Shown here: positions 15,340-63,429 of the stretch, piece by piece
How the letters are laid out: every line of letters begins with the position of its first letter
Position numbering within the stretch: position 1 is the first letter of the stretch
Assembly: GCA_963695335.1 (NCBI GenBank)
Contig: OY968764.1
Location: 832,001 to 896,000 of the forward strand
Length of the DNA: 64,000 nucleotides
DNA from: an uncultured bacterium
Lineage (GTDB): Bacteria; Babelota; Babeliae; Babelales; Vermiphilaceae
Direction of reading: 5' to 3'
Position numbers and translations under genes: made by a program
The notes under the pieces: model-generated
What the model saw: the letters and a program-made list of their open reading frames with translations, nothing else
The model's database searches: none
Told to the model about the DNA's origin: nothing

Positions 15340-15418
15340 TGTTCGTATGTTTCGACAAGCTCAACACGAACGGTTTTATATGATCCGTTCGCACTGAGCC
15401 TGTCGAAGTGAGCGAACG
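15340..15418. repeat. Palindromic repeat family A, inverted pair
   Basis: TGTTCGTATGTTTCGACAAGCTCAACACGAACGG...CCGTTCGCACTGAGCCTGTCGAAGTGAGCGAACG; recurs at 25284 and 26862. Confidence 0.85.
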
Positions 15419-18505: not shown

Positions 18506-19327
18506 ATGAAAAATATATCAAAAATACCAGCATTAGATGTTTCTCATCTTACTGTTGAATACAACCCTACTTCGCTAAAGCTACGAAGGGCAAGTCCCAA
18601 TTTAATTCTAGCCAATTTTTCAGTCACTATTCCACAAGGTGTGATGTGTGGCATTATTGGGCCCAATGGTGCAGGTAAAACAACGCTCATGAAAGCGTTG
18701 CTCCAATTAATACCCATTTCTGCAGGCAATGTGCAAATTTTGGGAAATTCTTTTAAAAATGTGCGCAATAAAATTGCATACATCCCTCAACGCAGTTCTG
18801 TTGATTGGGATTTTCCGATCACCGTGTTTGATATGGTATTAATGGGTTGTTATGGAAGATTAGGCTGGTTTAAGCGTCCAACAAATGCTGATCGTATTAA
18901 AGTATATGAGTCTCTTGCTGCCGTAGGCTTGTGCGAATATGCAGATAAATCAATTAGTGTACTATCTGGCGGGCAACAACAACGAGCGTTTTTAGCACGT
19001 GCGCTCATGCAAGATGCGCATATTTATTTTTTGGATGAACCATTCGCTGGTGTGGATATTGAAGCTGAAAAAATTATTATTACTCTTTTTAAGAAATTAC
19101 GTGATGAAGGCAAAACAGTTATTGTTGTTCATCACGATCTTTTTACGGCATCAACATATTTTGATTATATTTTATTACTGAATAAAACGTGTATTGCTTC
19201 TGGGCCTACTGAGCAAGTGTTAAATGCATTCAATCTTGAATGCACATATGGCCGCATACCCTTCGATACATTTTTTGAAGACAAAAAACACTCAGGGCGA
19301 GCGGAAAGAGAATTCTTAGAGCAATAA
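18506..19327 (+). CDS. troB: Metal ABC transporter ATPase (TroB)
   Basis: GPNGAGKTT, LSGGQQQR, FLDEPFAGVD, VHHDL. Confidence 0.92.
   Translation: MKNISKIPALDVSHLTVEYNPTSLKLRRASPNLILANFSVTIPQGVMCGIIGPNGAGKTTLMKALLQLIPISAGNVQILGNSFKNVRNKIAYIPQRSSVDWDFPITVFDMVLMGCYGRLGWFKRPTNADRIKVYESLAAVGLCEYADKSISVLSGGQQQRAFLARALMQDAHIYFLDEPFAGVDIEAEKIIITLFKKLRDEGKTVIVVHHDLFTASTYFDYILLLNKTCIASGPTEQVLNAFNLECTYGRIPFDTFFEDKKHSGRAEREFLEQ
18565..18594 (+). repeat. Family B 30-bp palindrome in frame in troB
   Basis: CCCTACTTCGCTAAAGCTACGAAGGGCAAG (PTSLKLRRAS). Confidence 0.85.
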
Positions 19328-19403
19328 AAGAAGAGTTAATCCCCGCTCGCCCTGAGTGTTCTTCGTAGCTTTAGCGAAGAAGAATGTATCGAAGGGTATG
19401 CGG
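19252..19403. repeat. Family A inverted pair; left arm forms the troB C-terminus, right arm carries a family B core
   Basis: CCGCATACCCTTCGATACA...CACTCAGGGCGAGCGG / CCGCTCGCCCTGAGTG[TTCTTCGTAGCTTTAGCGAAGAAGAA]TGTATCGAAGGGTATGCGG. Confidence 0.85.
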
Positions 19404-25283: not shown

Positions 25284-25427
25284 TGTTCGTATGTTTCGAC
25301 AAGCTCAACACGAACGGAGAGAGCGTTGAGCGCAGTGTTTACTACTGAGCTTGACGAAGTATCAACACGAACGGATTAGAAAATTTTATATCTCCGTTCG
25401 TACTGAGCCTGTCGAAGTAAACGAACA
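25284..25427. repeat. Family A repeat cluster
   Basis: Begins with 34 bp identical to 15340-15373; inverted arm CCGTTCGTACTGAGCCTGTCGAAGTAAACGAACA; extra internal arm. Confidence 0.85.
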
Positions 25428-26861: not shown

Positions 26862-27012
26862 CGTTCGTTTCTTTCGACAGGCTCAAGACGAACGGATAAA
26901 TGCAAGTTTTATATCTCCGTTCGTGCTGAGCTTGTTTAACCCCATCTTCAGTTTCTTTCGATGGGGACCCTGATTGGAACGGAGTGGAAATTGGGGCAAA
27001 AGTAAACGAACG
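26862..27012. repeat. Family A inverted pair with ~61-bp nested insert (family C)
   Basis: Right arm CTCCGTTCGTGCTGAGCTTGT...AAGTAAACGAACG interrupted at ~26936-26996, compared with the intact arm at 25392-25427. Confidence 0.8.
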
Positions 27013-36666: not shown

Positions 36667-38676
36667 TTACCAGCAAACACTACCTTTAAGCCATACACCC
36701 CAGTTTGAAAGTGCGCAGTTAATACATTTATCGTCACCAATCACCGGAGGCAGACCTGCTTGTCTGCCAAATTCAATTTCAGATCCAAATCCAATATGTG
36801 ATTCTGCGCGGCCATAGGTGTGAATGTGGTGATCAAAATGAGTGAATAGTTTGTGTGAAAATCCGCTTGTGGCAGCACTATTAAGATCAAGATCATGTAT
36901 GCTGATAAGAACTGGTTGGATTGATGTATTTATCTGGTTTGTGATAGTTATATCTTGAGGCGAAGCCACTAGATATTGATTGTTGCCAGCAAATGCTGGT
37001 TCTGGAAAATCTATATTAGGATTGCGTTGAGCGGTTTGTATTTGGATATTGCGTTCTGCTTCATTTGAGCTAACGCCTTGTTTTGGTAAATTTTTTCCAT
37101 AATTGATAGTTGCTTGTGATTCTGTTGCAGAAAGTGGTACTGCGGTTCCGATTGGTAAATCGGAAGAGTTAGAAGATTCCCCGACAAAACCATAAACCTG
37201 GGCATCGCCTTTGATTGCCCAGCTGTTTTCTGGAAAATTTTCACAATGTTTGAGTGATATATTTTCACATCCACGCTTCCAGGCATCATAACCGATTGTC
37301 CAATAATTACGATTGTGAGTATATGAAAGGCTTAAAGCAATATCAGCTTGTACATTGATGCTTACAACAATGTCTTGTGTAGTAAAGTTAACGATAGAAC
37401 TGACTTCATGATCGAATTGGGCGATTGGAATATTACCGTTGCCTGTTAAATTATCACTGATAATAGGTGTCATTTTTTCTGCAAGCATGTAACGGCTATT
37501 TGGTTTTCCTTTTAAATCAAATGCTCGTCGTTGAGAACTTTTAAACATATGATTAACGGTGATATCTGCAAAGCAATCAACTTTTTGATCTTGTGTGCTA
37601 TTTTCCCATGCAACTGCATGCGCAGTGATGCCAATGCCTAATTCATAGTGATGTCCATTACCAACAATTGGTTCAAATAAAAATTTTCCGTGTGGACGGT
37701 TTCCCAGTGGTATAGCCAATTGCGTTTTTATACCAACATGATGAAGATCGTGTATAAACCAATCATATCCAAGGTTTGTACGTAATTCAGCAAAGTGTAC
37801 CGCACGGCGTGCACAGAGTGCCATTTTACCTTGTGTGAGTGGTTGAAAGGTAAGATCACTAATATTTGGTACGCTATATCCAGCAATATACTGGCTAAAG
37901 CATTTCAAAAGATCTGATCGTTCAACTCCGTTTGGATTAAAGTAACCAGGAGCATAACCATTTATTCCTGAATTAATGACCGCTTCTCCTATATCAAGTT
38001 TCCAGTTGGTGTAAACAAGTGGTAAAAATATTTCTACATATAATCCTTTTACAATATTATTAAATCCCCAAAAAGATTGTGCTTCAACAATAACGTTATT
38101 AACGCGTGGCCGAAAACGTACAACGCTACTAAAATCTGTTGGTAAACCAAAATAATCTGCAAGCCAATCTTGTTGGGCTGATCGGTGTTCTGTTTGACTT
38201 CCAGATACTATAATAAAATCTTTCCATTCGGTGTCGTCACCATCTTTTCTGACAATATCTTGCCCAAATAAACATTGGTTGATCCGTTCGGGGCGGAATG
38301 ATGTTGTTGTTTCTAATACAAATCCGTATGTGCTGTATAACTTGTTTTGCGTGGGAATGTGAGTGATTGTATCCCAACCTGATATAAAACGTGGGGTATC
38401 AAAACCCTGTGAGCGTGGTGAAATAAAAGAGATGACTTGTGTATTTTGTGCGTGGGTGATGATAAATGTAAAAAGAAATAAACCTCCTGCGCTCATCCTG
38501 AGCTCGTCGAAGGATTTCTTTGAGCGCTCGAAGATATCCTTCAACAAGTTCAGGATGAGCGCAAGAGAAGATACAATTAAGGAAGTGGTTGATTTTTTCC
38601 GCTCGTCCTGAGTGTTTTTGTCTTCAAAAATGTATCGAAGGATTTGAGCGGTCTTGAAATAAATTTTCTTATTCAT
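36667..38676 (-). CDS. Putative outer-membrane beta-barrel protein, paralog 2 (leader interrupted by repeats)
   Basis: RSQ, WLADYFGLPTDF, PLGNRPHGKFLFEPIVGNGHHYELG, WGVWLKGSVCW. Confidence 0.7.
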   Translation of the reverse strand: MNKKIYFKTAQILRYIFEDKNTQDERKKSTTSLIVSSLALILNLLKDIFERSKKSFDELRMSAGGLFLFTFIITHAQNTQVISFISPRSQGFDTPRFISGWDTITHIPTQNKLYSTYGFVLETTTSFRPERINQCLFGQDIVRKDGDDTEWKDFIIVSGSQTEHRSAQQDWLADYFGLPTDFSSVVRFRPRVNNVIVEAQSFWGFNNIVKGLYVEIFLPLVYTNWKLDIGEAVINSGINGYAPGYFNPNGVERSDLLKCFSQYIAGYSVPNISDLTFQPLTQGKMALCARRAVHFAELRTNLGYDWFIHDLHHVGIKTQLAIPLGNRPHGKFLFEPIVGNGHHYELGIGITAHAVAWENSTQDQKVDCFADITVNHMFKSSQRRAFDLKGKPNSRYMLAEKMTPIISDNLTGNGNIPIAQFDHEVSSIVNFTTQDIVVSINVQADIALSLSYTHNRNYWTIGYDAWKRGCENISLKHCENFPENSWAIKGDAQVYGFVGESSNSSDLPIGTAVPLSATESQATINYGKNLPKQGVSSNEAERNIQIQTAQRNPNIDFPEPAFAGNNQYLVASPQDITITNQINTSIQPVLISIHDLDLNSAATSGFSHKLFTHFDHHIHTYGRAESHIGFGSEIEFGRQAGLPPVIGDDKCINCALSNWGVWLKGSVCW
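38488..38651. repeat. Family A repeats in frame in signal-peptide region
   Basis: Inverted pair 38488-38563 plus single copy 38599-38651 (the latter resembles the reverse complement of 19252-19304). Confidence 0.85.
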
Positions 38677-48258: not shown

Positions 48259-50703
48259 ATGAATATATTTTTTTTAGATAAAAACAGGTTGATTTGGTTG
48301 GTGGGAGCTACTTTTTATGGAGGAATTATTATTTTTTTAATAATTTCTCTTTTTTCGTATAGTCCAACTGATAGTTGTTTGCTTTATATTTCGAGTGCGG
48401 GAAACACTGTTTCTAATTGTGGTGGCTCCCTTGGCGCGCATCTTGCTGCGCTTTTGTTTTATTTTTTTGGAGGAGCATCATTTTTATTACTTATTCCATT
48501 GCTTGTTCTTGGATTGATTGTTTTTACCAAAAAAACATTGCGTGGTAATTGGGAGCGCTTGTGTGCTGCTGTATATATAATGTGTGTTGGGGCTGCATTA
48601 CTTACTACGTATGGTATGGATGTTGCAGTCAGTCCTTATCCTGGTGGATTGATAGGATTGCGGTTTGCGCAAATGTTATTACACTATTTTGATACTATTG
48701 GACGAATTCTTTTTTTATATGGCAGTCTGTGCGCGAGTGTGATTATTGTTTGCCGTTGGTCATTTATGTTTGCAGTACAATATGGCATTGGTGTAGCACA
48801 TCATATATATGTGTTAATGAAAAAATATCGGGTGGTTAGTAAAACCGTATATGCTTTTGGAGTGTGCGTACGTGCATTGTTTGTGCGTCTTCCTATTATA
48901 GTAGTGCAATTTATTATGTCTTTATTAAATGGAACAGCCTTTCATGAAACGGGGTTAATGCATCCTGAAGATGAAGTGAGTGATAACGCTATTGAAGATT
49001 TTGGTTCTACTCAGTTTGGTTGGGGTGAAGAATGTCATTTTACTGAGCAGCAAAAGAGTGATGAAGTTAATTATGTTGTTGTGTCATTGCAACAGCATGA
49101 AAGTTTTGGTGTTTTAAAGTTGCCTGTCACATCGGCTATATTATCATTGTCGCAAAAGAAATCTGCTACAGTATCACATGTGCATCATAAAACTGTTTCT
49201 GTTTCAATTCCATTGCCTACCCAAGTAATAGAAAAGTTAAAATCAATATCGTCACTCAAAAAACAAGCTCCTCAATACGCATTGCCGCACATGGATATTT
49301 TTATTGCAGAAAAACATGTAGAAGATCACAACGTTGAAAAAGAGTTACAAGAGCGTGCACAAGTTCTTGAAGATAAATTAAAACGGTTTGGCGTTAATGG
49401 GCAAGTGGTTGCTATTAAGCGGGGGCCTGTTGTAACCGTGTTTGAGTATCAGCCTGATATTGATACAAAATTAAGTAAAATTATTGTTCTTGAAGATGAT
49501 CTTGCTATGGCACTGCAAGCAATGAGTATTCGTATTATTGCACCAATTCCAGGAAGATCAGTTGTGGGCTTTGAAGTTTCTAATACAACACGTCATGATG
49601 TTCTTTTTTCGCAAATTACACGATCGTCAGCGTACACACAATTTTCAGGTAATTTACCACTTGTGCTTGGTAAAGATACCATTGGTGATGCAGTGATAGT
49701 TGATTTAGCACGTATGCCACATTTATTAATTGCAGGTTCAACAGGGTCAGGAAAATCAGTAGCGCTTAATGCTGTACTGATAAGTTTATTGTGTAAGTTA
49801 AGTCCTGATGAACTGAAACTTATTTTAATAGATCCCAAACGTTTAGAGTTTGCAGCGTTTACTGATATTGCTCATTTACTGTTTCCGATTGTCACGAGCC
49901 CTGTGTATGCAGCTCCTGTTTTAAGATGGGTGGTGCAAGAGATGGAAGATCGTTATGAAAAGATGGCGGAATGTGGGGCTCGTAATATAAATGATTATAA
50001 CGCACGCACCCTTCAACAAGTTTCCTCCTACGCCAAGGCTACGGAGGACAGGCAGGGCGAGCGGAAAGAGATTGATCCTATGCCATATATTGTTGTAGTT
50101 ATTGATGAGTTAGCAGATTTAATGCTTACTGCAGGACGTGATATTGAAGATTTGATTACCCGTATTACACAGATGGCGCGTGCGGCAGGAATTCATATGA
50201 TTGTTGCAACTCAGCGGCCTTCAGTGGATGTTATCACCGGGCTTATTAAAGCTAATTTCCCAAGTAGGATATCATTCAGAGTTGCATCACGTATTGATTC
50301 ACGCACTATTTTAGATACTGTAGGAGCTGACCGTTTACTTGGTCGAGGAGATATGCTTTTTCTTGATGCGGCAACATCACAATTAAGACGCGTGCACGGT
50401 GCATATGTTTCTGATAAAGAGATTGAACAGGTTGCTGATCATATTAGAGCACAAAGAAAAGTTGAATATCTTGATATGCAACAAGTAACTGTGTTGCAGG
50501 GGCAAGATGCAGGAACAATAGACGATGTGCTCTATAAAGATGTACGAGAATTTTTGGGTGATATAGATGAGGTGTCCATTTCTCTTTTGCAGCGAAAATT
50601 CAGAATTGGATATAATAGATCAGCGCGGATTATTGAAATGTTAGAAGCGCAGGGGTTGATTATGCCGCAAGATGGAAGTAAAACACGAAAAGTAATACGT
50701 TAA
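48259..50703 (+). CDS. ftsK: DNA translocase FtsK
   Basis: N-terminal TMs, PHLLIAGSTGSGKS, IDELADLM, ATQRPSVDVITG, gamma domain LQRKFRIGYNRSAR. Confidence 0.96.
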   Translation: MNIFFLDKNRLIWLVGATFYGGIIIFLIISLFSYSPTDSCLLYISSAGNTVSNCGGSLGAHLAALLFYFFGGASFLLLIPLLVLGLIVFTKKTLRGNWERLCAAVYIMCVGAALLTTYGMDVAVSPYPGGLIGLRFAQMLLHYFDTIGRILFLYGSLCASVIIVCRWSFMFAVQYGIGVAHHIYVLMKKYRVVSKTVYAFGVCVRALFVRLPIIVVQFIMSLLNGTAFHETGLMHPEDEVSDNAIEDFGSTQFGWGEECHFTEQQKSDEVNYVVVSLQQHESFGVLKLPVTSAILSLSQKKSATVSHVHHKTVSVSIPLPTQVIEKLKSISSLKKQAPQYALPHMDIFIAEKHVEDHNVEKELQERAQVLEDKLKRFGVNGQVVAIKRGPVVTVFEYQPDIDTKLSKIIVLEDDLAMALQAMSIRIIAPIPGRSVVGFEVSNTTRHDVLFSQITRSSAYTQFSGNLPLVLGKDTIGDAVIVDLARMPHLLIAGSTGSGKSVALNAVLISLLCKLSPDELKLILIDPKRLEFAAFTDIAHLLFPIVTSPVYAAPVLRWVVQEMEDRYEKMAECGARNINDYNARTLQQVSSYAKATEDRQGERKEIDPMPYIVVVIDELADLMLTAGRDIEDLITRITQMARAAGIHMIVATQRPSVDVITGLIKANFPSRISFRVASRIDSRTILDTVGADRLLGRGDMLFLDAATSQLRRVHGAYVSDKEIEQVADHIRAQRKVEYLDMQQVTVLQGQDAGTIDDVLYKDVREFLGDIDEVSISLLQRKFRIGYNRSARIIEMLEAQGLIMPQDGSKTRKVIR
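50009..50064 (+). repeat. Family A repeat with nested family B (50023-50052), in frame in ftsK
   Basis: CCCTTCAACAAGTT[TCCTCCTACGCCAAGGCTACGGAGGACAGG]CAGGGCGAGCGG. Confidence 0.9.
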
Positions 50704-53170: not shown

Positions 53171-55072
53171 CTATACATTAAAGTACGAGCGGTAAAGAAG
53201 CAAAAAACGATACTTATCCTTAAGGATTACAGCAATGGAAATAACGGAAGTTAAAGTATTTCCGGTAACGGATGGTGAAAAATTAAAAGCATATGCGACA
53301 ATAGTCTTTGACAATGCGTTTATTATTCGAGACCTCAAAGTTATTGAGGGAATCAAAGGGCTATTTGTTTCAATGCCATCACGCAAACGTAAAGATGGAA
53401 CATTTCGTGATGTTGTGCATCCCCTAAACCCAGAAACTCGCAGCATGATTGAAGAGCATGTTGTGCATGAATACAAAAAAGTTATGGATCTTGGTGGAGC
53501 GCATCCAGTATCGGATGAAGAGTAGTAGATAATAAATTTGATAATTTTCTTTTGGGGCGTGGCCAAGCGGTAAGGCAACAGGTTTTGGTCCTGTGATCGG
53601 AGGTTCGAATCCTTCCGCCCCAGCCATACATTACCATCGGTTGCTTTCTTGATAGCATCAAATGGTTTTTGTACGTCGTAGACGATGTTTTCATCTTGTA
53701 GGCGAATGTTCTGAAGTACAAGTGTAATTAATTGTCGTCTTTCTTCTAGTTCCGAACTTTCAAATAAATTAAATGCGTGCTTGGTAATTTCAAGCACGTG
53801 TTTTGTTGTGTTATAATAATTATCTTCAGCATCGTTAAGTTGGCTGAGTCGTAGATTGATATCTTCTTTCTGTGCTGTGAATGATGCATGAAACTTGTCG
53901 TATTGTTCGTCGCTAATCTTGTCTTTTAGTTTATCTATGTAGAGTTTATCCATTATGTTGGTAATAGTTTTCAGTTCTCCGGTAAATTTATCGAATTGAT
54001 TGTTATGAAATTCCATTTTATTTAGATGAAGTTCCTGAAGAGTTTCTGCAATCTCTTTCCGTATGTTATCCGGCATTTGAAGAGCTTTAAAAAATTCACC
54101 CAATTGTTTTGTTATTTCATCTTCTCTAATCCATTTTGCCCCGTGTTTGCCATTATATTGCGTGCAATGATAATAGACATGGCCCTTGTGGCGTTCAGGT
54201 GATATTGAGAGTCCACATTCATAGCAACGAATAAGGCCGCGATAGAAGAATGGTAGTCCGGCATATTTAAAAGGTTTCTTTTTGAAGCCATCTTTTATGT
54301 TCTGCACTTGTTGAAACAGTGATTGTGAGACAATAGGTGTATAGCAATGAGGATATGATTTACCTTTTACAATCATGGTTCCATGGTAAAAAGGATTCTG
54401 TAATATTTTAGCAAGATGAGACTTGAACCATGAAATTCCAAAATCAGTTTTGATTTTTTTGCAGAGTAATTCCATTGAATAGCCGCCTGTAGCATAGAGT
54501 TCAAAGGCTGTTTTTACTATAAAGCGATTATGTTCGTCTACAATGATAGCGGTTTTTTCATTTTCAAGTTTAATGTTTTTGTAACCGAATGGTGCTTTCC
54601 CGAGCCATTCTCCTTTGCGTAACTTTTGTTCTTGTGCTCGCTTTACGTTATCGCTGATTGCATCTGAATAATACTTTGCGAGGCCTAGGCTCATGCTAAA
54701 TGTAAATTTCTCAGTAGCAGATATTTTGCTGCTCAATATTTGTCCGTCAGAAACAAAATGTATTTCTATTTCGTCACTGAGCGCTTTTTCATAAAGTAGG
54801 GAAATGCGTTTATCGAAAACGTTTCTTGAAAGACGGTCAACCTTATCAAAACAAACGATGACCTTTTCTTTTTGTTCGAGAATGAAATCTACAATGCGAT
54901 CGAATGCGTCGCGTTGATTCTTGTATGCACTTTCATCGAAGCTGCATAGTCTGACAATCTCGAAATTTTTGTTTTTACAGTAATTTTGAAGGCGTGCTTC
55001 TTGAGCAGGAAGTGAGTTGCCGGCTTCACGTTGTTCTTCTGTGGATACTCTTGCTATAATAATTGCTTTCAT
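53171..55072 (-). CDS. Large serine recombinase; codons after ~484 read antisense through tRNA-Gln and spoVG
   Basis: ARVSTEEQ, SLPAQ, DRLSRN, APFGY, CYECG zinc ribbon, coiled coil. Confidence 0.9.
   Translation of the reverse strand: MKAIIIARVSTEEQREAGNSLPAQEARLQNYCKNKNFEIVRLCSFDESAYKNQRDAFDRIVDFILEQKEKVIVCFDKVDRLSRNVFDKRISLLYEKALSDEIEIHFVSDGQILSSKISATEKFTFSMSLGLAKYYSDAISDNVKRAQEQKLRKGEWLGKAPFGYKNIKLENEKTAIIVDEHNRFIVKTAFELYATGGYSMELLCKKIKTDFGISWFKSHLAKILQNPFYHGTMIVKGKSYPHCYTPIVSQSLFQQVQNIKDGFKKKPFKYAGLPFFYRGLIRCYECGLSISPERHKGHVYYHCTQYNGKHGAKWIREDEITKQLGEFFKALQMPDNIRKEIAETLQELHLNKMEFHNNQFDKFTGELKTITNIMDKLYIDKLKDKISDEQYDKFHASFTAQKEDINLRLSQLNDAEDNYYNTTKHVLEITKHAFNLFESSELEERRQLITLVLQNIRLQDENIVYDVQKPFDAIKKATDGNVWLGRKDSNLRSQDQNLLPYRLATPQKKIIKFIIYYSSSDTGCAPPRSITFLYSCTTCSSIMLRVSGFRGCTTSRNVPSLRLRDGIETNSPLIPSITLRSRIINALSKTIVAYAFNFSPSVTGNTLTSVISIAVILKDKYRFLLLYRSYFNV
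53235..53525 (+). CDS. spoVG: SpoVG family nucleic-acid-binding protein
   Basis: MEITEVKV, LKAYATIVFD, GLFVSMPSRK, FRDVVHPLN. Confidence 0.92.
   Translation: MEITEVKVFPVTDGEKLKAYATIVFDNAFIIRDLKVIEGIKGLFVSMPSRKRKDGTFRDVVHPLNPETRSMIEEHVVHEYKKVMDLGGAHPVSDEE
53553..53626 (+). tRNA. tRNA-Gln (TTG)
   Basis: Acceptor TGGGGCG/CGCCCCA, anticodon arm ACAGG-TTTTGGT-CCTGT, T arm GGAGGTTCGAATCCTTCC, encoded CCA. Confidence 0.96.
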
Positions 55073-55223
55073 GCTGCTCTGATTTGTTAAGGAAGTTTAA
55101 AAATGGTTTAGAACTATTATTGTAGCATGAAGAAATATCAGTTGCTATGTTATAAATTAGGGTATATTTATTTTTGGGGAATCAATGATTTTTCTACTAA
55201 AATGAAATATCGGTGATAATTTT

Positions 55224-55785
55224 TTATAAGATAAGACTATCGTATGTACTCTCGTGACCAAGAGACTTAGTCGTTGCGCCTACTTTATTACCATTGAACT
55301 CACGCATTTTTAAATACATGTCTTCTCGGTAATCTAGCTCATCAAGAGATAGGCCTTTATATCCTCGATGTGGAACCTTTTGGACATGTTTACAATATTC
55401 TAAAAGGTGAAGGGCTCTATTTTTCTTTACACGTAAGTAAGGAAGAATATTTTGAATGAACTCTGCCACTCGGTTCTTATCTCTCATATACCAATGATAA
55501 ATTGGTTTTGAGTTAGGTCTACTTTTGCGAGCGCCATCGATGTGTACATAACCGAATTTCATTTCATTGACTATAAAGTCAATCGCTTCTGGTTCAATCA
55601 TTGCTATTTTAATACCAGGCAAATAAGTAATAGCCCAATTTTCTACAGTCTTTGGAAACTCCAAAGCTCTGTCAGTTGTTCTATTTTTAGTCTTACGCTT
55701 ATGTTTAAATATCATAAAGCACCCATCTGCATCCATTATTCCTGCTATATACGCCCAATGCGTTTTGCTCTGGTTATTAATGCAT
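55224..55785 (-). pseudogene. LAGLIDADG homing endonuclease with frameshifted start
   Basis: WAYIAGIMDADGCF motif; the RBS-preceded ATG at 55785 reads ATG CAT TAA, 1 nt out of frame. Confidence 0.75.
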
Positions 55786-55941
55786 AAATATCCTTTAATG
55801 TTTGTTGTATCTATATCGTGATGGCATACATTGATATTTATGTTTAGACTTTTCGTGTAATCGCTCTCGGTTTAATGCCCCAATATTAACTGGCTAAAGG
55901 GGCAGAAAGCGTTGTAGGTGTAGTTAATATATATACACTCC

Positions 55942-57174
55942 TTACGTAGCTTTTTTTTGTTCAAACCAGGTTTCGATTTTTTTTCTATGCTGGTATGCAG
56001 AACAATTAAAGCATTGTTTGCCAGGTTTAATGTTTGGAAGTTCAGGTGATGTTATGCATTGTAAAATTTCATCTAGTGTTTCTTCGATCCATGAATAATC
56101 AATCGAGACTTTTATAACTGTAGTTTGAAACTTTAGCTTTCGTTGGTACGTATCAATCGTGCTAAAAGGGTTAAAAACATATTCATTTGAAGAAGTAGTT
56201 TTGCCGAGTATAACATCTGTATAGTCATATGTTGATATAACAGGTTTATCTAATATTAAATAGCCAATATCACTTGTATGAAAGTTATTTTTGTTCAACA
56301 GATAAGAGTAAAAAGAAATTTGTCGTCTATAGGATGCGCCTAGCGCATCATCTATGCTTATCATGTCTTTGGATGTTGTTTTAAAGTCAACAACAATAAG
56401 TTGTCCTGATTGATTTTGTAATACTTCGTCAATGATTCCAGTTAGAATGAAATTACGAGACTTATCATGAAACCTAATTCCGCCTTGCCCATAGTGTGAA
56501 TTTTGCCATATTGGTATATCTTTGTGATTAAATGGAATGGCTGAAATTCTCTCGCTCATTAGTATAGGATGAGCTTTTTCTACCTGTCGACATTGGTGAA
56601 ATTCATCTTTTAGGAGATTGTCATTTGCATTAGAAAGCGTAAATTTATCGTTATCGTAATCTCTTTTAATTTGACATTTTTTGACAAGATAAAAACATCG
56701 CTTGCAATCGAAATATGATTTAATATCATTGTGGCTGATGGTAATAGATTCGGTGATAGATCTATTTAATGGTAATGAATCAACGACGTCTGTAACTGTT
56801 AGGCCAAGCACATCGATGTATGAACGAATTTTTAAGAATTTTATAGAAAGTTCGAATTCTGGATGATCATTATTTACTTGAATGGGATATCGTTTTTCAT
56901 AGTATTGACCCGATATGTCATGATGCAAAATAAAGCTTAAAGCATAATGATCCAGGTCATAAACGACTTGTTGTTTTATGAAAAGATTATTTTTGATAAG
57001 TTCATTATTTATCGTATTGATGAGATTGGTATAGTCAGCATCAAAATCTTTATGAGTGAGAGTTATAGGTTCTGTTTTAATTCTCTGAGTTGCTTCCCAT
57101 AATTCGTTATAGGATGGATTATCAGCAAGTTCAAAAAAGAAACAAGGAAGGTTTCGGCGAATGTGTTTTTCCAT
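55942..57174 (-). CDS. PD-(D/E)XK nuclease (RecB/Cas4-like)
   Basis: GIIDEV...VVDFKTT, QISFY, Cys pairs CKRC and CFNC. Confidence 0.8.
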   Translation of the reverse strand: MEKHIRRNLPCFFFELADNPSYNELWEATQRIKTEPITLTHKDFDADYTNLINTINNELIKNNLFIKQQVVYDLDHYALSFILHHDISGQYYEKRYPIQVNNDHPEFELSIKFLKIRSYIDVLGLTVTDVVDSLPLNRSITESITISHNDIKSYFDCKRCFYLVKKCQIKRDYDNDKFTLSNANDNLLKDEFHQCRQVEKAHPILMSERISAIPFNHKDIPIWQNSHYGQGGIRFHDKSRNFILTGIIDEVLQNQSGQLIVVDFKTTSKDMISIDDALGASYRRQISFYSYLLNKNNFHTSDIGYLILDKPVISTYDYTDVILGKTTSSNEYVFNPFSTIDTYQRKLKFQTTVIKVSIDYSWIEETLDEILQCITSPELPNIKPGKQCFNCSAYQHRKKIETWFEQKKAT

Positions 57175-57409
57175 AGAATATTTAGTTTAAGGATTACCAA
57201 TTTAATAAGTATCTTCAAAACTAAACTCATCTTTAAATAATAAAGCTTAATTGCTATAAAATAAGCTTTATTATTAATAAAGTATAAACAAATTGTTAAT
57301 ATTTGTCGAGTAAATTATTTATATTAACAAATTAAATACGAACAATATTGATTGGGTAATGAAAGATTTTTATGTTATTTTCTATATATTTCGATAAAGG
57401 AGGTCTGCG

Positions 57410-58042
57410 GTGACTCATTGGGGATGGTATTGGAAAATAAAAAAGAAACATTTAGCAAAAAAAAATTGTTCTTCTATGGTAAAAATAGATTCGTTTCATC
57501 TCTATAAAAATAATATGATGACGGGATTTAGGGTTGATCCACTTGATATTAATGCTGAGCCAGAGCCAAATTTTTTAAAGATTGTCTATGGGAAACGTAA
57601 AGAGCATTCTTATATAATTCGAGTTGCCAGATTATCTTGTAATTACGGTGGATTTAGAAGTTATTTTCGATGTCCTTTGTGTGATAAACGCATGAGATTT
57701 CTTTATTTTGCAGAGAGAAGTATTTTTCTATGTCGTAAGTGTTTAAACCTTGGATATGACACTCAGCGTTTTAGGCCTACTATGCGATATGAGTATATTA
57801 GTCAAAAGGTGAAGAAGTTTGTGCGGAATAAAGGTGGAGATTTGGATTGTTATAAAAAACCACCTCGCATGCATGAGGATACGTACCAAAGACTTAAAAG
57901 TAAGCAATTTTACTATGAACATAAATCATATCAGGCAACTAATCAGGAACTTCGTAGATGGCATGGTAAAAAAATGGAAACATATTTGGATAGTTTTTTC
58001 GATTATGTTGATGAGTCCAAAGATTGGCGTAAAATAACCTAA
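57410..58042 (+). CDS. Zinc-finger hypothetical protein
   Basis: CNYGGFRSYFRCPLC...FLCRKCLNLGY; AAGGAGG RBS. Confidence 0.75.
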   Translation: MTHWGWYWKIKKKHLAKKNCSSMVKIDSFHLYKNNMMTGFRVDPLDINAEPEPNFLKIVYGKRKEHSYIIRVARLSCNYGGFRSYFRCPLCDKRMRFLYFAERSIFLCRKCLNLGYDTQRFRPTMRYEYISQKVKKFVRNKGGDLDCYKKPPRMHEDTYQRLKSKQFYYEHKSYQATNQELRRWHGKKMETYLDSFFDYVDESKDWRKIT

Positions 58043-58290
58043 TGGACTAACACTACGAAGTATTGATATGTTGAATAAAATTGAAGCAGGTTGATGTTGT
58101 TATCAATTCATATAATGGTTTTACAAAAGGGTTTTTTTGACTGTTTCATATAAAGGTTGAAATATTGAATCCCCCCGTTAGTTTTGATGGCAAAAGGAAT
58201 AGGGGGGCTGTATTCAATTCTTCAACTTAGATTGTTTTGTGGATAAAAAGGTTTTGATACTACTGCTTTGTTTACGATTGAGAGTTAGGT

Positions 58291-60636
58291 TCAATTGTTT
58301 TCAGGCTCATCAATTATGTAATATTCATCGTCCTTTTTTTTCTTACCTTCTTTACATATAAGTTTGCCTTGGTCAACAAGCTCGCTCAATATAGGGTCAT
58401 ATTCCTTGGCTCCGCCATCAAATTGTTTTGAGGTTAATATTGTTTGGCGCGTTACGGTTTTTTTATCTTGGATACGTTTACTAATCCAGTTTATTAAGGT
58501 GCGACATTTTCGTTGGTGATGCGATTCTCCAAATTCTTGTTCTAAAAATCCAATAGTAGATTTAATTGCAGGGTTGAGGAAATGAAAAGCCTTTATTATT
58601 GCATCTCCCGATATTTCTATACTGTTGTGATCTATAAAAAGTTGCATTATCATTGCGATTTTTAGAAGAGCAGGACTCCATCTTTTTAGATATGGTTGAA
58701 TCAGTTTAATCGTTTTATCGTTGCAAGCTCGTGCTGCACAATAAATAAGTATATGGTAACTATGAAAGATTCTTCTTGCATCTGGAGTTAGAGAAAAGGA
58801 TCGTTCTTCTCCTATAGATGTGATAATACGGTCTATATACATTTTGAAAGTCATTTCTTGATTCTCATCAGATACTGCCTGACGAAAAGGCAATGCCGGT
58901 GGAATTTTATCGTTGGATGGTGGAGTTAGTATAATGAGTCGAGCAAAAAAACCGCTTGGAATATCACTCAATTTCATATTTTCTTGAATCCAAGATGCTG
59001 TAGATACACCACAAATCGATATGAAGGGTTTTTTTAATATACAATCTCCTTGTGTTTTAGTTTTATAGCGATAACATGTGGGCACATCATAGAGCTCTGT
59101 CATAATAGCTTTGAAATCATTGTTATGTGTTTTATCCAGGTTTTGTAACCATCCTCCAAATTCACTGGCGAAGATAACCCCTTTATGCTCTTGGGCTAAG
59201 TATTCCAAAAGAGCTTCAGCGGTTATTTTAGTTGGAAGGATAATATTTTCTCTTGATTTGTTTAATTGTTCTTCGGTTAAAGAGCTTTGTTGTTGTGATC
59301 CTGTTTGCAATTCTTTTATTTGAGCAAGTATCTGTGTTTGCAAGTCATAGGCAAGCTTTGCTCCTTTATTGAGAGCGGTGGTTTTGAATTGTCCGCTATT
59401 TGCAATACAAAGAATCCAAAGATTGCTATAAAGAGTTTGGAAGTATTCTCCTTCTGGTATAAAAACTTTGGTGCCTAAATAACCAGACATCATAGAGATT
59501 ACGGATGCTGTAATTATAATTGGATGTGCGTTAGTGGTCTTTTGTATTGACGATATATATTCTCTGAGTGGAGTAGGAAATTTTTTTAATTCAAATTTTT
59601 TGCATGGATCATTGTCACTGAGAAAGTGTTCTCGAGCAACTCTTTTGCCGGCTTCGCTTTTGGCATAGGCTTGAATGAGTTGCTCTCTTACTTCATCAAT
59701 GCCTGCTATTTGAGCAAGATCATTAAAATCAGTGGCATCTTGTTTTTTTTGGTTTGGAAACTCAGGTATAACAAACGAGCAGTCATTAAATTTATTGATT
59801 GCGTCATGAGCTTTCATTGTGCCTATTTCATCATTATCTGCGGCAACAATAAAGATTCTTTGAGGGAATCTTTTTTTTAAATTATCCAGAACTACTGAGA
59901 TATTACCCGCATCAAATGCTACAATTGTTGGTTTTTTGATTGCTTCGTAAATAGATGCACATGTTGCATAACCTTCGCCAATGAACATGACATGTTTATC
60001 ATCAGTTAAATTGCCTATTAAATGGTAGTTTCCTTTTTTCTCGCCACCAGGAAAAAATTTTTTACATGTTTTTCCTTCTTCCATGGAAATAAATTGTAAA
60101 GATCGTAGTTCATCTTCATTATTATACAGAGGAATAACAAGAGAGGGGTATCCTTGTAGATTATTGCTAAATCTGACGGTATTGCTTGGTTCAATACCTT
60201 TGACACTGATGTATTGTAGGTAGTCATTTGTAGATGGCGTTATGGAACATTGCTCCCAAAAGCTTTGAGCTGATTTTGCAGCTTTTTCTTGGTTTTCACG
60301 AATATTATTTTCTGTCTTTAATATATTGAGGCGAGCAATTTCTTTTAATTCTGCGCGTTCGTCATCATTAACAGAAGTGTCTTGATCAAAAGATTTATAT
60401 GTATGTTTTATTCCATCTTTCCATGACGCAAAAACAACATTCAAGAAATGGTTACCTTGAGATGAAGTGCCTTCATAGGCAATATACCATTCATCTTTTT
60501 TATGTTTATTATTGTTGCTTGAGTATCGATGAATTTTAGCATCAGTAATAAGATCACCATCAAAGGTGAGGCCCTTCTCTGCCATATATGATTTACAATT
60601 TTCTTTTAAATTAAATCTTTTTTCGATATTATGCAT
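58291..60636 (-). CDS. Toprim primase fused to DUF3987/YfjI-like helicase
   Basis: IGEGYATCAS, AFDAGN, AADND, TDFNDL; ANSGQFKTT Walker A-like; SEFGGW. Confidence 0.85.
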   Translation of the reverse strand: MHNIEKRFNLKENCKSYMAEKGLTFDGDLITDAKIHRYSSNNNKHKKDEWYIAYEGTSSQGNHFLNVVFASWKDGIKHTYKSFDQDTSVNDDERAELKEIARLNILKTENNIRENQEKAAKSAQSFWEQCSITPSTNDYLQYISVKGIEPSNTVRFSNNLQGYPSLVIPLYNNEDELRSLQFISMEEGKTCKKFFPGGEKKGNYHLIGNLTDDKHVMFIGEGYATCASIYEAIKKPTIVAFDAGNISVVLDNLKKRFPQRIFIVAADNDEIGTMKAHDAINKFNDCSFVIPEFPNQKKQDATDFNDLAQIAGIDEVREQLIQAYAKSEAGKRVAREHFLSDNDPCKKFELKKFPTPLREYISSIQKTTNAHPIIITASVISMMSGYLGTKVFIPEGEYFQTLYSNLWILCIANSGQFKTTALNKGAKLAYDLQTQILAQIKELQTGSQQQSSLTEEQLNKSRENIILPTKITAEALLEYLAQEHKGVIFASEFGGWLQNLDKTHNNDFKAIMTELYDVPTCYRYKTKTQGDCILKKPFISICGVSTASWIQENMKLSDIPSGFFARLIILTPPSNDKIPPALPFRQAVSDENQEMTFKMYIDRIITSIGEERSFSLTPDARRIFHSYHILIYCAARACNDKTIKLIQPYLKRWSPALLKIAMIMQLFIDHNSIEISGDAIIKAFHFLNPAIKSTIGFLEQEFGESHHQRKCRTLINWISKRIQDKKTVTRQTILTSKQFDGGAKEYDPILSELVDQGKLICKEGKKKKDDEYYIIDEPENN

Positions 60637-60698
60637 GTCAGTTCCTATTAAGTGTGAGCCACTGAAGATGATGCTTCAGTGGCTTCTTTTTGGTTATA

Positions 60699-60971
60699 TT
60701 AAGTGAGTATGATTAATTTTTGTAGGACTTCGCATGAAAAATTGTGCTGTTCATTTGAATCGATCAAACCATACGAGCAAAACAATATGAGATTTTCGCT
60801 GTCGCAGCTTTCGATAGATGCTATGTACGATCCTGGATTATCTTTTTTCTTTAAGTGATGTCTTTGTCCATCGGTATATAAGCGCCCTAGTAGTACAAAC
60901 CCTTTTTTCTCCATGTCCCGTCTTGTTAGAAACTTGAAGTAGGGTAGATAGTTAGTTTGTATTATATTCAT
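60699..60971 (-). CDS. Hypothetical protein
   Basis: In apparent operon with primase; ATGA overlap with upstream ORF. Confidence 0.55.
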   Translation of the reverse strand: MNIIQTNYLPYFKFLTRRDMEKKGFVLLGRLYTDGQRHHLKKKDNPGSYIASIESCDSENLILFCSYGLIDSNEQHNFSCEVLQKLIILT

Positions 60972-61126
60972 TGTTTCTTCCTCTGGTGCGCTTGTTGTGC
61001 TGTAGGAGTTATCTTTTCCCTATGGTCTATTTGAATCAAAAGTTGGAAGAATGAAATGAGTCTTTGTTTTTCTTCAGGCGTGAGTTTTGTTGGGATTGCA
61101 TTACTTACTAATTCTCCTTTATTCAT
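60968..61126 (-). CDS. Small hypothetical protein (52 aa)
   Basis: Manual ORF MNKGELVSNAIPTKLTPEEKQRLISFFQLLIQIDHREK...; abuts both neighbours. Confidence 0.55.
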   Translation of the reverse strand: MNKGELVSNAIPTKLTPEEKQRLISFFQLLIQIDHREKITPTAQQAHQRKKQ

Positions 61127-61369
61127 TTAGTATTCCTTGGTGTAAATATCTGCGCCATTGTGGGCATGCATGCGGTCTTCAAGGAATGTAAGGACTGCTT
61201 TTTTTGGATACAAAATTTTGTGTTTCAGCTTGATGTAAGCGGGACTATTTGATCGTTTTCTGGCTAGATATGCTGCATCAATTGATGCATAGATTCCCAG
61301 ATATACGAGGTCTTGTGCTGATAAGAATTCGTTCATTTGGTTGAGCTTGTCTGATAAAGCATTATTCAT
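61127..61369 (-). CDS. AlpA/excisionase-like HTH protein
   Basis: EFLSAQDL...SPAYIKLKHKILYPKKAVLTFL pattern; leads the primase operon. Confidence 0.65.
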   Translation of the reverse strand: MNNALSDKLNQMNEFLSAQDLVYLGIYASIDAAYLARKRSNSPAYIKLKHKILYPKKAVLTFLEDRMHAHNGADIYTKEY

Positions 61370-61533
61370 GGAAAGCCTCTTTATTTAAGAGAGTTCAATG
61401 AAGATGTGAGAGGAAATGCTTTAGGATATATATACAAAAAAATGTATATATTATATATTGATATTGTTATGAGGGTAACAATCCCAAAACATTAGAAAGC
61501 CAGTGAGTTGCCGCTTACTGGTTTTCGCTCTTC

Positions 61534-62604
61534 TTACTCTTCAATAAGAATCTCATTGATTATATTTATGGAATTTTGATTAAGAGCGAGCCATGTTGCT
61601 CGCATAGTATCTGGTTGTACTCGTCTGATTTTTGCCTCCTTACTTGCGTTTGTAAATGAATGATTTAGTCGAGATCGCGTTAATGATCTTCCATTTCTTG
61701 TAATAAATATGTGATTATTATCAGCTCGTTGTTCTTGTGTTGATGCTATGTAATCGTTTAATTTTTTCATGAACGTTTTTGGATATTCTATTGGTTTTTC
61801 ATATTTGATTTTATTTTTGTATTGTAAAAATCGAATGATATTATTTGAAAAATCGATTTGTTCAAGGGTTAATGTTAAAACATCAGAAATACGTACAGCT
61901 CCATAAAACATAGTGCTTGAAATCAGATAATCCCGATAATTATTTTTTGCTAAGAATGTATTAAATTTTTTTAACTCATCTAGAGAAAGAGCTTTTTGCG
62001 ATGTTTTTATAGTTGAGCGATAAACAGATCTTTTTTGAGAAGTTATGGGTAATGCTCTTCGGAACCATCCATTAGTAATACGTTCGAGGAATATACTGAA
62101 TGAAGTGTAACATTCGATACGAGCTATTTTAGCTGTCTTAGATAAATCATTCATGTGTTCTATGTATTGTAGTATTGATTTTTGGTTAATATGCCTTAAA
62201 CCACCTATACTGAATGCTCTGCCATCCGCAAAAGTAGTTGGGATAATATTTTTGTCCATTAGGTCTGTCATGTACGATGTGTATTTGATCTGCGTAGTGT
62301 TTTTTTCAAGCGTTATAAGCCAATTTTGAATGACTGCTGTGATAGGCATATAATCAAGCTCTTCAATTAATTCGTATTGGGCCCGATTTACAGCATTTCG
62401 AAGATTGAATAATTTAAGACTGTCATCTGTACGCTTGAGGATTGGATATTGCTTTTCTTTGGCATGTAATTCTTCTAGGAGTATTCTTCCTTGCGCAAAT
62501 TGCTCATCGTTTTTTTGTAGAATGATGATATCAGGGGATTCTTTTTGAAGTAGATTTGTTTCTTTATCTGATAGCTGTCGCATTAAAAGTTTCGTAGGTA
62601 ACAT
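61534..62604 (-). CDS. Tyrosine recombinase-like protein (chlamydial pGP8-D-like), C-terminally degenerate
   Basis: RDYLI...GAVRISDVLTL, IFITRNG, PDTMRAT; ends before the catalytic Tyr region. Confidence 0.75.
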   Translation of the reverse strand: MLPTKLLMRQLSDKETNLLQKESPDIIILQKNDEQFAQGRILLEELHAKEKQYPILKRTDDSLKLFNLRNAVNRAQYELIEELDYMPITAVIQNWLITLEKNTTQIKYTSYMTDLMDKNIIPTTFADGRAFSIGGLRHINQKSILQYIEHMNDLSKTAKIARIECYTSFSIFLERITNGWFRRALPITSQKRSVYRSTIKTSQKALSLDELKKFNTFLAKNNYRDYLISSTMFYGAVRISDVLTLTLEQIDFSNNIIRFLQYKNKIKYEKPIEYPKTFMKKLNDYIASTQEQRADNNHIFITRNGRSLTRSRLNHSFTNASKEAKIRRVQPDTMRATWLALNQNSINIINEILIEE

Positions 62605-62701
62605 ATCATTCCTTTGTTTGTATCTTTTCTTGAATGAGAAATATGTTACCTCAACAACAGGTTTCGCGCAAGTTTTATTTGCCAACGCGCATAATGTTTT
62701 G

Positions 62702-62806
62702 TTAAACAGATAAGTGAAGCTCAGAAAATACTGTTTGGATGTGTTGTAAACTGAAATCAAAAGTAATTGATCTGTTAAGGAATGAGTCCACTAGGGGCAG
62801 CCATAC
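62702..62806 (-). other. Displaced 3' end of the serine integrase gene
   Basis: From the att core reads VWLPLVDSFLNRSITFDFSLQHIQTVFSELHLSV*, in frame with integrase codon 482. Confidence 0.75.
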
Positions 62807-63089
62807 TACGCTAAAGCTTCGTATGGCAAGCCATACCTTTCAAATGATTGATATAAAAAATTTAAAGAAGTTTGATAGCTGAGCGTAGTATGCCCTTCGA
62901 AGCCTTCGGCGAAGTAGGGCTCTTTTTTTATCCTTGTAATTTTTTCAATGGTAAATCAAATTACGCTAAAGCTTCGTATGGCAAGCCATACCTTTCAAAT
63001 GATTGATATAAAAAATTTAAAAAAGTTTGATAGCTGAGCGTAGTATGCCCTTCGAAGCCTTCGGCGAAGTAGGGCTCTTTTTTTATCCT
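62807..63089. repeat. 128-bp tandem direct repeat (155-bp period), each unit bounded by inverted family B palindromes
   Basis: 62807-62934 vs 62962-63089, one mismatch seen. Confidence 0.92.
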
Positions 63090-63127
63090 AATTTTTTAAT
63101 TTTAGATAACATTTCTTTAATTTATAT

Positions 63128-63370
63128 ATGTATTACGTATATCTCATCAAGTCTCTGAAAAACCCTCATAAAACTTATATAGGTTTTACTAATGATATTG
63201 AACAACGTATGGAAAAACATAACAATGGTGCATCTATTTATACCTCTGATGATAGACCTTGGAAATTAGTTACATACATTTGTTTTGATGATCAATCTAA
63301 AGCCGTTGCATTTGAAAGATATCTTAAAGTTGGTTCAGGGCATGCATTTGCTCAGCGAAGATTGTGGTAA
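63128..63370 (+). CDS. Stand-alone GIY-YIG nuclease
   Basis: YYVYLI...TYIGFT, RMEKHNNG, YT...RPWKLV, FERYLK. Confidence 0.92.
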   Translation: MYYVYLIKSLKNPHKTYIGFTNDIEQRMEKHNNGASIYTSDDRPWKLVTYICFDDQSKAVAFERYLKVGSGHAFAQRRLW

Positions 63371-63429
63371 TTTATAAAAGTCATGTGAAAAACACATGGC
63401 TTTTTTTTTGTGTGTTTTAGTTTTGTTAT

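Follow-up and report, generated by a model that had tools for sequence, protein, structure and literature searches.

Here we describe a small GIY-YIG nuclease gene, GIY1, and the GC-rich hairpins that precede it in a 64,000-nucleotide stretch of DNA (the window: positions 832,001 to 896,000 of contig OY968764.1, assembly GCA_963695335.1) from an uncultured bacterium of the Vermiphilaceae, whose genome is a single contig of 1.37 Mb with 35.7% G+C and whose proteins have named relatives in Dependentiae/Babeliales. Our results show that gene and hairpins form one conserved cassette at the ends of tRNA genes, and that the anatomy of this cassette is conserved over phyla and tRNA types: the CCA end of the tRNA is followed by a first hairpin (H1), a spacer, an inverted copy of the 5' arm of H1 (here called TIR), a second hairpin (H2) and then the gene. 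A first-pass annotation made from the letters of the window had proposed a selfish repeat system run by the GIY-YIG nuclease and had described the linkage between the two as positional only; instead, it is conserved across phyla and across the genomes of Dependentiae. That annotation also missed that the hairpin module is a tRNA 3' end element, the pairs of which are joined by the inverted 5'-arm copy.

At the site itself, two blocks of 133 nt (62802-62934 and 62957-63089) are 98% identical to each other, and BLAST aligns a 128-nt piece of them at 99.2%. The tandem period is 155 bp, so the 128 bp first given for the duplication is wrong as a period, about 128-133 bp being the length of the block itself. 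Within each block a family B hairpin occupies the + strand (62801-62826; 62956-62981), with another further along on the - strand (62893-62919; 63048-63074). The structural scan and the match of the gene to PF01541 thus bear out the earlier description of four B hairpins in two inverted pairs directly before an intact 80-aa GIY-YIG gene, as well as its claim that this is the densest B cluster of the window, since 4 of the 8 B hairpins that the scan finds in the window lie at 62801-63074.

In the first module copy, hairpin H1a begins with CCA at 62801 and is continued by a tail (62827-62833) that closes with a second GCCA, so that hairpin and tail occupy 62801-62833 on the + strand. An A+T-rich spacer (62834-62881) follows; the spacer is similar in the loci of Dependentiae and short in GC-rich phyla. 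The TIR is an exact 11-nt inverted copy of the H1a 5' arm (62882-62892, + strand; 63037-63047 in the second copy) that links the hairpins within each pair, pairs with the H1 5' arm in the DNA fold and covaries with it. H2a, of B type on the - strand and followed by a T run, lies at 62893-62919 and was recovered by the consensus fold of 16 loci described below. The second module copy (62956-63074) repeats this order with H1b, its TIR and H2b, and the 5' arm of H1b carries 2 substitutions that weaken its pairing. The best single-stranded DNA fold joins the H1 5' arm with the TIR into a long, REPIN-like hairpin (-21.7 kcal/mol, z -3.0). From the last B hairpin to the ATG of GIY1 (63128-63370, + strand) the gap is 53 nt, and past the gene stands a terminator-like hairpin with a T run that is not of B type (63376-63404, + strand).

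The family is abundant in the genome as a whole. The structural scan finds 76 B hairpins against 1-8 in each of 5 shuffled sequences, and the core CTWCGC-N2-10-GCTWCG has 83 matches against 1 for a reversed control pattern; the stems differ among copies with compensating changes. Among public sequence data, a short contig spans 62807-62991 with 1 difference and thereby bridges the two module copies, so the duplication is not confined to this assembly, provided that the run is not itself the source sample. Four soil runs gave only contigs of 151-244 nt, which contain identical pieces of the site as well as H1 straight after tRNA ends in other organisms; no joints or variants were seen in these contigs. 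The public runs that contain the sequence include no RNA run among those listed, and their shares are all 0.18 or less.

The conservation of the cassette was examined around relatives of GIY1. A protein search returned 418 relatives at an E value of 1e-5 or better, most of them 79-81 aa long among the best 120 of the 418. A locus scan of one genome per species, keyed on the protein motif only, confirmed 588 of at least 605 matching stretches, and the locus counts that follow come from a sample of 79 loci among the matches listed. These 79 loci are spread over more than 10 phyla, with Dependentiae, Verrucomicrobiota, Alpha- and Deltaproteobacteria, Nitrospirota, Planctomycetota and candidate-phyla-radiation (CPR) groups among them, and their proteins have 49-81% identity. 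In the 500-nt flanks on either side of the genes, which total 76,191 nt, the hairpin core is found 119 times, and in 276,030 nt of distal sequence 15 times, an enrichment of about 29-fold. At least one core lies within 500 nt of the gene in 64 of the 79 loci, nearly always upstream, and about 36 have upstream a + strand hairpin followed by a - strand hairpin. Four other loci (L044, L071, L081 and L082) likewise have the module doubled in tandem.

A tRNA lies no more than 700 nt from the gene in 50 of the 79 loci, and in 44, which represent many isoacceptor types, a tRNA on the same strand ends no more than 230 nt upstream of it. Within these 44 tRNA-adjacent loci the core stands at most 30 nt from the tRNA end in 41, the complementary 3' arm is present in 39 and the TIR in 27. 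The 6-nt arm comes in 16 different forms, which means that the pairing covaries. A consensus fold of 16 compact loci gives H2, in which an outer stem of 7 bp leads through a 3x3 internal loop to an inner GC stem, together with the inner stem of H1, and shows compensatory changes in 8 of the 13 predicted pairs.

The same arrangement is repeated within the host genome. ARAGORN finds 34 tRNA genes, and at the encoded CCA of at least 15 of them by regular expression, or about 19 by eye, an H1-type hairpin has its exact start; the CCA end of the transfer-messenger RNA (tmRNA) also bears one. Most of these tRNA-end copies then have spacer, TIR and H2, and the TIR covaries with the H1 arm between tRNA sites. 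Two module subtypes can be distinguished, one, to which the window copy belongs, with a CCATAC-type H1 and an H2 of CCCT stem, and one with a CCAGTC-type H1 and a GTCCG-stem H2. The genome encodes a close paralog of GIY1, GIY2 (81 aa, 45% identical), which lies behind tRNA-Arg(UCU) after a CCAGTC-type module, so that each of the two paralogs stands behind its own subtype. Modules that have no gene (at least 15) outnumber the 2 full cassettes, and tblastn searches with E values up to 10 detected no GIY gene remnants behind them; gene-less modules are therefore not simply decayed cassettes. Behind 5 different tRNAs stands a nested H2, one hairpin sitting in another's loop, that hardly varies from site to site although the spacers do, and each TIR matches its own H1 arm; this indicates that the module was copied as a unit.

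Further hairpins and repeats were seen at tRNA and tmRNA ends. The tmRNA (G000:C1:444797-445400, G000 being the window genome) ends in a CCAGTC-type module, and about 9.5 kb further on (454700-455000) a near-identical module comes after a repeat of the final few tmRNA bases, which looks as though a further island had integrated at the end of the tmRNA. A third hairpin type, which starts with ACTTTTA-CCC and has a TTCGC...GC core further in, stands at the CCA ends of tRNA-Ser(GCU), tRNA-Met (471388), tRNA-Val(GAC) and tRNA-Tyr in the window genome and also occurs in L091; it has no link to a GIY-YIG gene in this genome.

In the window, the cassette likely belongs to tRNA-Gln(UUG), found by ARAGORN and Rfam at 53553-53626 on the + strand, and appears to have been parted from it by an integrase island. 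The last bases of this tRNA plus 3 more (CAGCCATAC, 53621-53629) recur at 62798-62806, where H1 begins, and form a 9-nt direct repeat at both ends of an island of about 9.2 kb (53630-62797). Pfam hits in the island comprise a tyrosine integrase (61534-62760, - strand) and a Toprim/DUF3987 primase-like gene (58291-60636, - strand), and it also holds small open reading frames (ORFs). Sequence like the left end of the island comes after tRNA-Gln in the same-genus genome G087, and in a relative whose protein is 66% identical (L014) tRNA-Gln, hairpin module and gene stand in direct succession. The island probably integrated between the CCA end of tRNA-Gln and the first hairpin. Among same-genus genomes, the tRNA-Gln site is empty in one, has H1 alone with two stems in two and carries another hairpin type in the fourth; within the genus the full cassette at this site is present only in the window genome.

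GIY1 matches PF01541 with an E value of 4.6e-16 and 59.3 bits (cut-off 22.6), and since its open frame has only 86 codons the protein is a stand-alone single domain of 80 aa. The catalytic residues of the GIY-YIG superfamily are the tyrosines of the GIY and YIG motifs, an arginine and a metal-binding glutamate; in 19 aligned sequences Y5, Y17, G19, R27, H31 and E63 are invariant. The AlphaFold model (pLDDT 90.6) has strands at 2-9, 16-21 and 45-53 and helices at 24-33, 56-67 and 69-79, that is, the GIY-YIG domain's beta-beta-alpha-beta-alpha fold. With Foldseek the best match is HIGLE (7WME; E 1.6e-4, template modelling (TM) score 0.76), with Slx1 at TM 0.70-0.74, UPF0213 BH0048 next and the I-TevI and UvrC domains also among the matches, while phmmer gives 1ZG2 at E 3e-5 and 7WME at E 7e-4. 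Slx1/HIGLE and UPF0213 proteins (PDB 7WME, 6SEH, 7CQ2, 4XLG and 1ZG2) are thus the closest in both sequence and fold, in line with the earlier remark on GIY-YIG enzymes of the Slx1 type. Unlike Slx1, GIY1 is a bare 80-aa core that ends right after the nuclease domain, with no C-terminal zinc finger and no RING/PHD finger; no search was made for an Slx4-type partner. Slx1 cuts branched DNA, which makes a hairpin or cruciform a plausible substrate for GIY1. NCBIfam has no family for GIY1 or GIY2, and TIGR01453, the model of group I intron endonucleases, does not match GIY1.

All three small GIY-YIG genes of the genome adjoin palindromes. The third and more distant one, GIY3 (L004:1300-1960; G000:C1:565400-566050), encodes a UPF0213-like protein of 95 aa (1ZG2, E 6e-15) and is flanked on both sides by composite palindromes of the most abundant family of the genome. 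The layout of this gene is closer to that of ssnA and its flanking NTS repeats, considered below, and may represent a separate enzyme-repeat pair.

Gene and hairpins also occur together at the level of whole genomes. In an even sample of 121 genomes of Dependentiae, with the gene called at a profile E value of 1e-6 or better, the gene is present in 89, with 1-10 matches each. The median number of hairpin cores is 11 (mean 18.8) in genomes that have it and 1 in the 32 that do not, none of which has more than 13. The prediction that repeat-rich genomes should have the gene held in all 29 genomes with at least 20 cores and in 50 of the 53 with at least 10, and gene presence and core count are correlated over the 121 genomes with a Spearman coefficient of 0.63, relatedness being ignored. 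The same-genus genome G087, which is 95% complete, has neither gene nor hairpins, so neither is needed for tRNA function. In several genomes (G035, G005, G034, G031, G054, G009 and others) relatives of the gene contain one to three in-frame stop codons, and such decaying copies fit a selfish element with turnover.

A related system is already in print. SsnA of Neisseria, a single-domain GIY-YIG protein of 94 aa, binds the NTS hairpins that flank its gene and cuts single-stranded DNA (ssDNA) beside the hairpin (Chenal et al., Nat Commun 2025, PMC11893778). According to the main text of that study, a survey of the Ssn family found the SRM motif at 71% of homolog loci and the gene in 81% of SRM-rich genomes, the authors liken the layout to that of IS200/RAYT-REP, and SsnA and NTS are proposed to restrict or steer ssDNA in Neisseria (PMC11893778). 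The marks of the Ssn family include assignment to CDD cd10448 or a blastp E value below 1e-10 to SsnA of N. meningitidis, and site-specific cleavage of ssDNA next to the hairpin but not of dsDNA or RNA (PMC11893778). A small GIY-YIG nuclease acting at flanking hairpins, as the first-pass annotation had imagined it, is consequently not new in kind (PMC11893778). The present system resembles Ssn, as described there, in its single-domain protein of 80-95 aa (the Ssn limit is <150 aa; GIY1 has 80), in the position of the gene beside hairpin repeats of 20-50 nt in tens to hundreds of copies (76-83 here) and in the way that gene presence tracks repeat number across genomes, relatedness again being ignored on our side.

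GIY1 is set apart from Ssn by hairpin type, layout and tRNA anchoring. The SRM motif has 0 matches in the host genome (1-2 for the controls) and likewise 0 in the 500-nt gene flanks of the 79 loci, the hairpins here having instead the CTWCGC...GCTWCG core with a 3x3 internal loop; they lie upstream only, not on both sides of the gene, and they start at the CCA end of a tRNA. The term tRNA is absent from the main text of PMC11893778, its supplements being outside this search, and a literature search for tRNA-anchored GIY-YIG cassettes found nothing beyond Chenal 2025. The principle of a GIY-YIG enzyme paired with hairpin repeats is thus published for the sister family Ssn, and the tRNA-anchored form was not found described.

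One Mesorhizobium genome has both kinds at separate loci: at L101 a small GIY-YIG gene flanked by CGTC palindromes, at L103 a gene like GIY1 among B cores. The loop limit of the SRM search motif misses the long-loop CGTC palindromes beside the former. The protein with the NTS-like flanks is 38% identical to GIY1 and 28% to GIY3, that is, about equally distant from both. At L103 (2440-2925) the GIY1-type gene stands next to four alternating pairs of B cores with a period of about 119 nt, which gives the array a BIME-like appearance, and at L101 (1000-1400 and 1720-1950) the other small GIY-YIG gene lies between CGTC-tagged palindromes.

Our favoured reading, which we hold with about as much belief as doubt, is that the hairpins and GIY1 are one tRNA-CCA-end cassette whose nuclease would nick the hairpins and so spread the module. 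GIY1, being Slx1-like, would bind and nick the hairpins as single-stranded or extruded DNA; nicking would lead to copies of the hairpin module at other tRNA ends and, less surely, to single hairpins scattered into genes; and the two paralogs would each serve one subtype, GIY1 the CCATAC-H1/CCCT-H2 type and GIY2 the CCAGTC-H1/GTCCG-H2 type. The parts of this proposal differ in strength. Conserved synteny, co-occurrence, the pairing of paralogs with subtypes and the Ssn precedent make it likely that the nuclease acts on the hairpins, and cutting by GIY1 at these hairpins is suggested by analogy with SsnA. That the nuclease spreads the hairpins may reasonably be inferred; the step from cutting to copying is putative, as are the strand and form of DNA that would be used.

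Several observations weigh against this reading. The GIY-YIG domain cuts DNA and does not join it. An abundant dispersed subtype of B hairpin, with TCCT...AGGA stems, is unlike the hairpins of either cassette, and single stem mismatches divide evenly between G.T and A.C (6 vs 6), which gives no sign that one strand is used. The core lies downstream of the gene in only 4 of the 79 loci, unlike the NTS-ssnA-NTS arrangement. Across Dependentiae, 15 of the 89 genomes with the gene have 3 cores or fewer, and at least 10 cores occur without the gene in G020 (13), G103 (10) and G118 (10, where the control pattern has 11). Of the 8 genera that contain both states, only 3 show a clear excess of cores with the gene; 4 show a tie and 1 a slight deficit. 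Genomes without the gene also tend to be the smallest, so that the signal that connects gene and hairpins could in part reflect mobile DNA being lost in general. Finally, the role published for SsnA in Neisseria is to modulate transformation, not to move repeats (PMC11893778).

A wider form of the proposal we put forward tentatively, as one that we would sooner expect to fail than to stand: a Slx1-like second branch of mini GIY-YIG nucleases would run a REPIN-like selfish system of its own at tRNA and tmRNA CCA ends in more than 10 phyla, leave gene-less modules on most tRNA genes of some genomes and seed in-frame palindromes in essential proteins such as FtsK. If true, many REP-like repeats without a RAYT, a large class, would gain the enzyme that they have so far lacked.

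Of the other explanations the strongest, which we nevertheless regard as unlikely, is a selfish cassette of the homing type. Here the nuclease would cut tRNA ends without a cassette, which repair would then fill with a copy, the hairpins acting as a cis-acting leader that insulates tRNA 3' processing, borrows the tRNA promoter and folds the transcript, and single hairpins spreading by other means. The position of the cassette exactly at the CCA end behind many different tRNAs speaks for it, and so do a tRNA-end or H1 copy after the gene in some loci (L021, L042 and L015) and a simple + strand promoter scan that found no site between the hairpins and GIY1, a result which fits read-through from the tRNA and which, the scan being crude, is not evidence of absence. 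Seg-type GIY-YIG homing endonucleases of phages are free-standing and lie in tRNA gene clusters, are at least 200 aa long, include a DNA-binding domain and come without any family of hairpin repeats. GIY1 shares with Seg enzymes the character of a small selfish GIY-YIG gene among tRNA genes, but at 80 aa and with no match to TIGR01453 it lacks a DNA-binding domain of the homing-enzyme kind. Homing also fits poorly with gene-less modules that far outnumber the cassettes and leave no gene remnants, and different tRNAs share only CCA and the T arm, which offers little homology for copying by repair.

A domesticated host function is less probable still. Nuclease and hairpins might restrict or steer ssDNA in uptake, recombination or replication, or mark tRNA 3' trailers, with the repeats kept by selection. 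In its favour, conservation of the protein is high, its length stays at 80 aa and its catalytic residues are invariant, and a host function has been shown experimentally for SsnA (PMC11893778). A host function is hard to reconcile with the absence of the gene from 32 of the 121 genomes of Dependentiae and of both gene and hairpins from G087, with a copy number of 1-10 per genome, with copies that contain stop codons and with an identity of 50-60% over more than 10 phyla, which suggests horizontal movement. Chance neighbourhood, in which common GC-rich palindromes and a gene happen to meet beside an insertion hot spot, could draw on the several abundant palindrome families and on the B hairpins, about half of the total, that lie inside long ORFs away from GIY-YIG genes, and is very improbable since the hairpin pair precedes the gene in the same order and spacing in distant phyla, all three small GIY-YIG genes of the genome abut palindromes, and flank enrichment, tRNA adjacency and arm covariation already contradict it.

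The cassette hairpins have counterparts inside genes. Of the 76 B hairpins, 37 lie well inside ORFs of at least 120 aa, where they are typically read as ...FAKAS... or ...SAKATKGK.... One of them (50019-50052) is in frame within an FtsK-like protein of 814 aa (ORF 48259-50703), in which it encodes a 10-residue insert in a variable loop between conserved motor motifs. The ortholog of the same-genus genome G005 lacks this insert, and that of G087 has in its place another, unrelated one of similar length. The idea that the repeats write short peptides into host proteins is therefore real in at least this one case. Rickettsia palindromic elements are hairpin repeats that are likewise inserted in frame in proteins. 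Intragenic REPs are comparable in that conserved proteins contain hairpin repeats as in-frame insertions (Di Nocera et al. 2013, PMC3733652); both differ from the present family in repeat sequence, and here a candidate enzyme is linked to the repeat by conserved synteny. The REPs of CGTC type treated in the same paper seem to have no dedicated transposase (PMC3733652).

Comparison with REP/REPIN repeats and their RAYT enzymes (REPtrons; PMC3116915, PMC2817692) shows several common traits: a multicopy hairpin that is short and GC-rich, inverted pairs that can form one long hairpin, one or a few enzyme genes per genome beside the repeats, and clusters and tandem arrays. The enzyme here is a GIY-YIG protein and not an HUH/Y1 transposase, and the modules are anchored to tRNAs. 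No Y1 transposase in the genome is tied to B hairpins. The Y1_Tnp genes belong to three identical IS200 copies (L008, L009 and L010; G000:C1:369218, 574578 and 1166633), whose shared block of about 570 nt bears hairpins of its own, different from those of family B, and one nearby B hairpin falls outside the block. The IS200-type element is probably a recently active insertion sequence. A RAYT or IS200 TnpA flanked by the same repeats was looked for and not found, the IS200 hairpins being unrelated. Nor did the other two outcomes appear that the first-pass annotation had named as refuting its idea, homologs without flanking hairpins and repeat-rich genomes without the gene.

The genome contains other GC-rich palindrome families, whose core 11-mers occur 50-79 times. 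In the window, such palindromes lie at 15340-15373, 25284-25427, 26862-26935, 38484-38567, 19252-19403 and elsewhere. They nest in one another and in B hairpins, and in many cases translation runs through them.

Few unexplained repeats are as common in bacterial genomes as short GC-rich palindromes, many families of which have no known enzyme, as is stated for CGTC REPs in PMC3733652. The tRNA-anchored cassette is a second, differently built pair of enzyme and hairpin after Ssn, and its fixed target at the tRNA CCA end, its defined hairpin architecture and its two paralog-subtype pairs in a small genome are features that make it testable. If the nuclease does cut these hairpins, it could yield new tools specific for ssDNA or for DNA structure, and it would explain the inserts found in the tRNA trailers and essential proteins of reduced intracellular bacteria.

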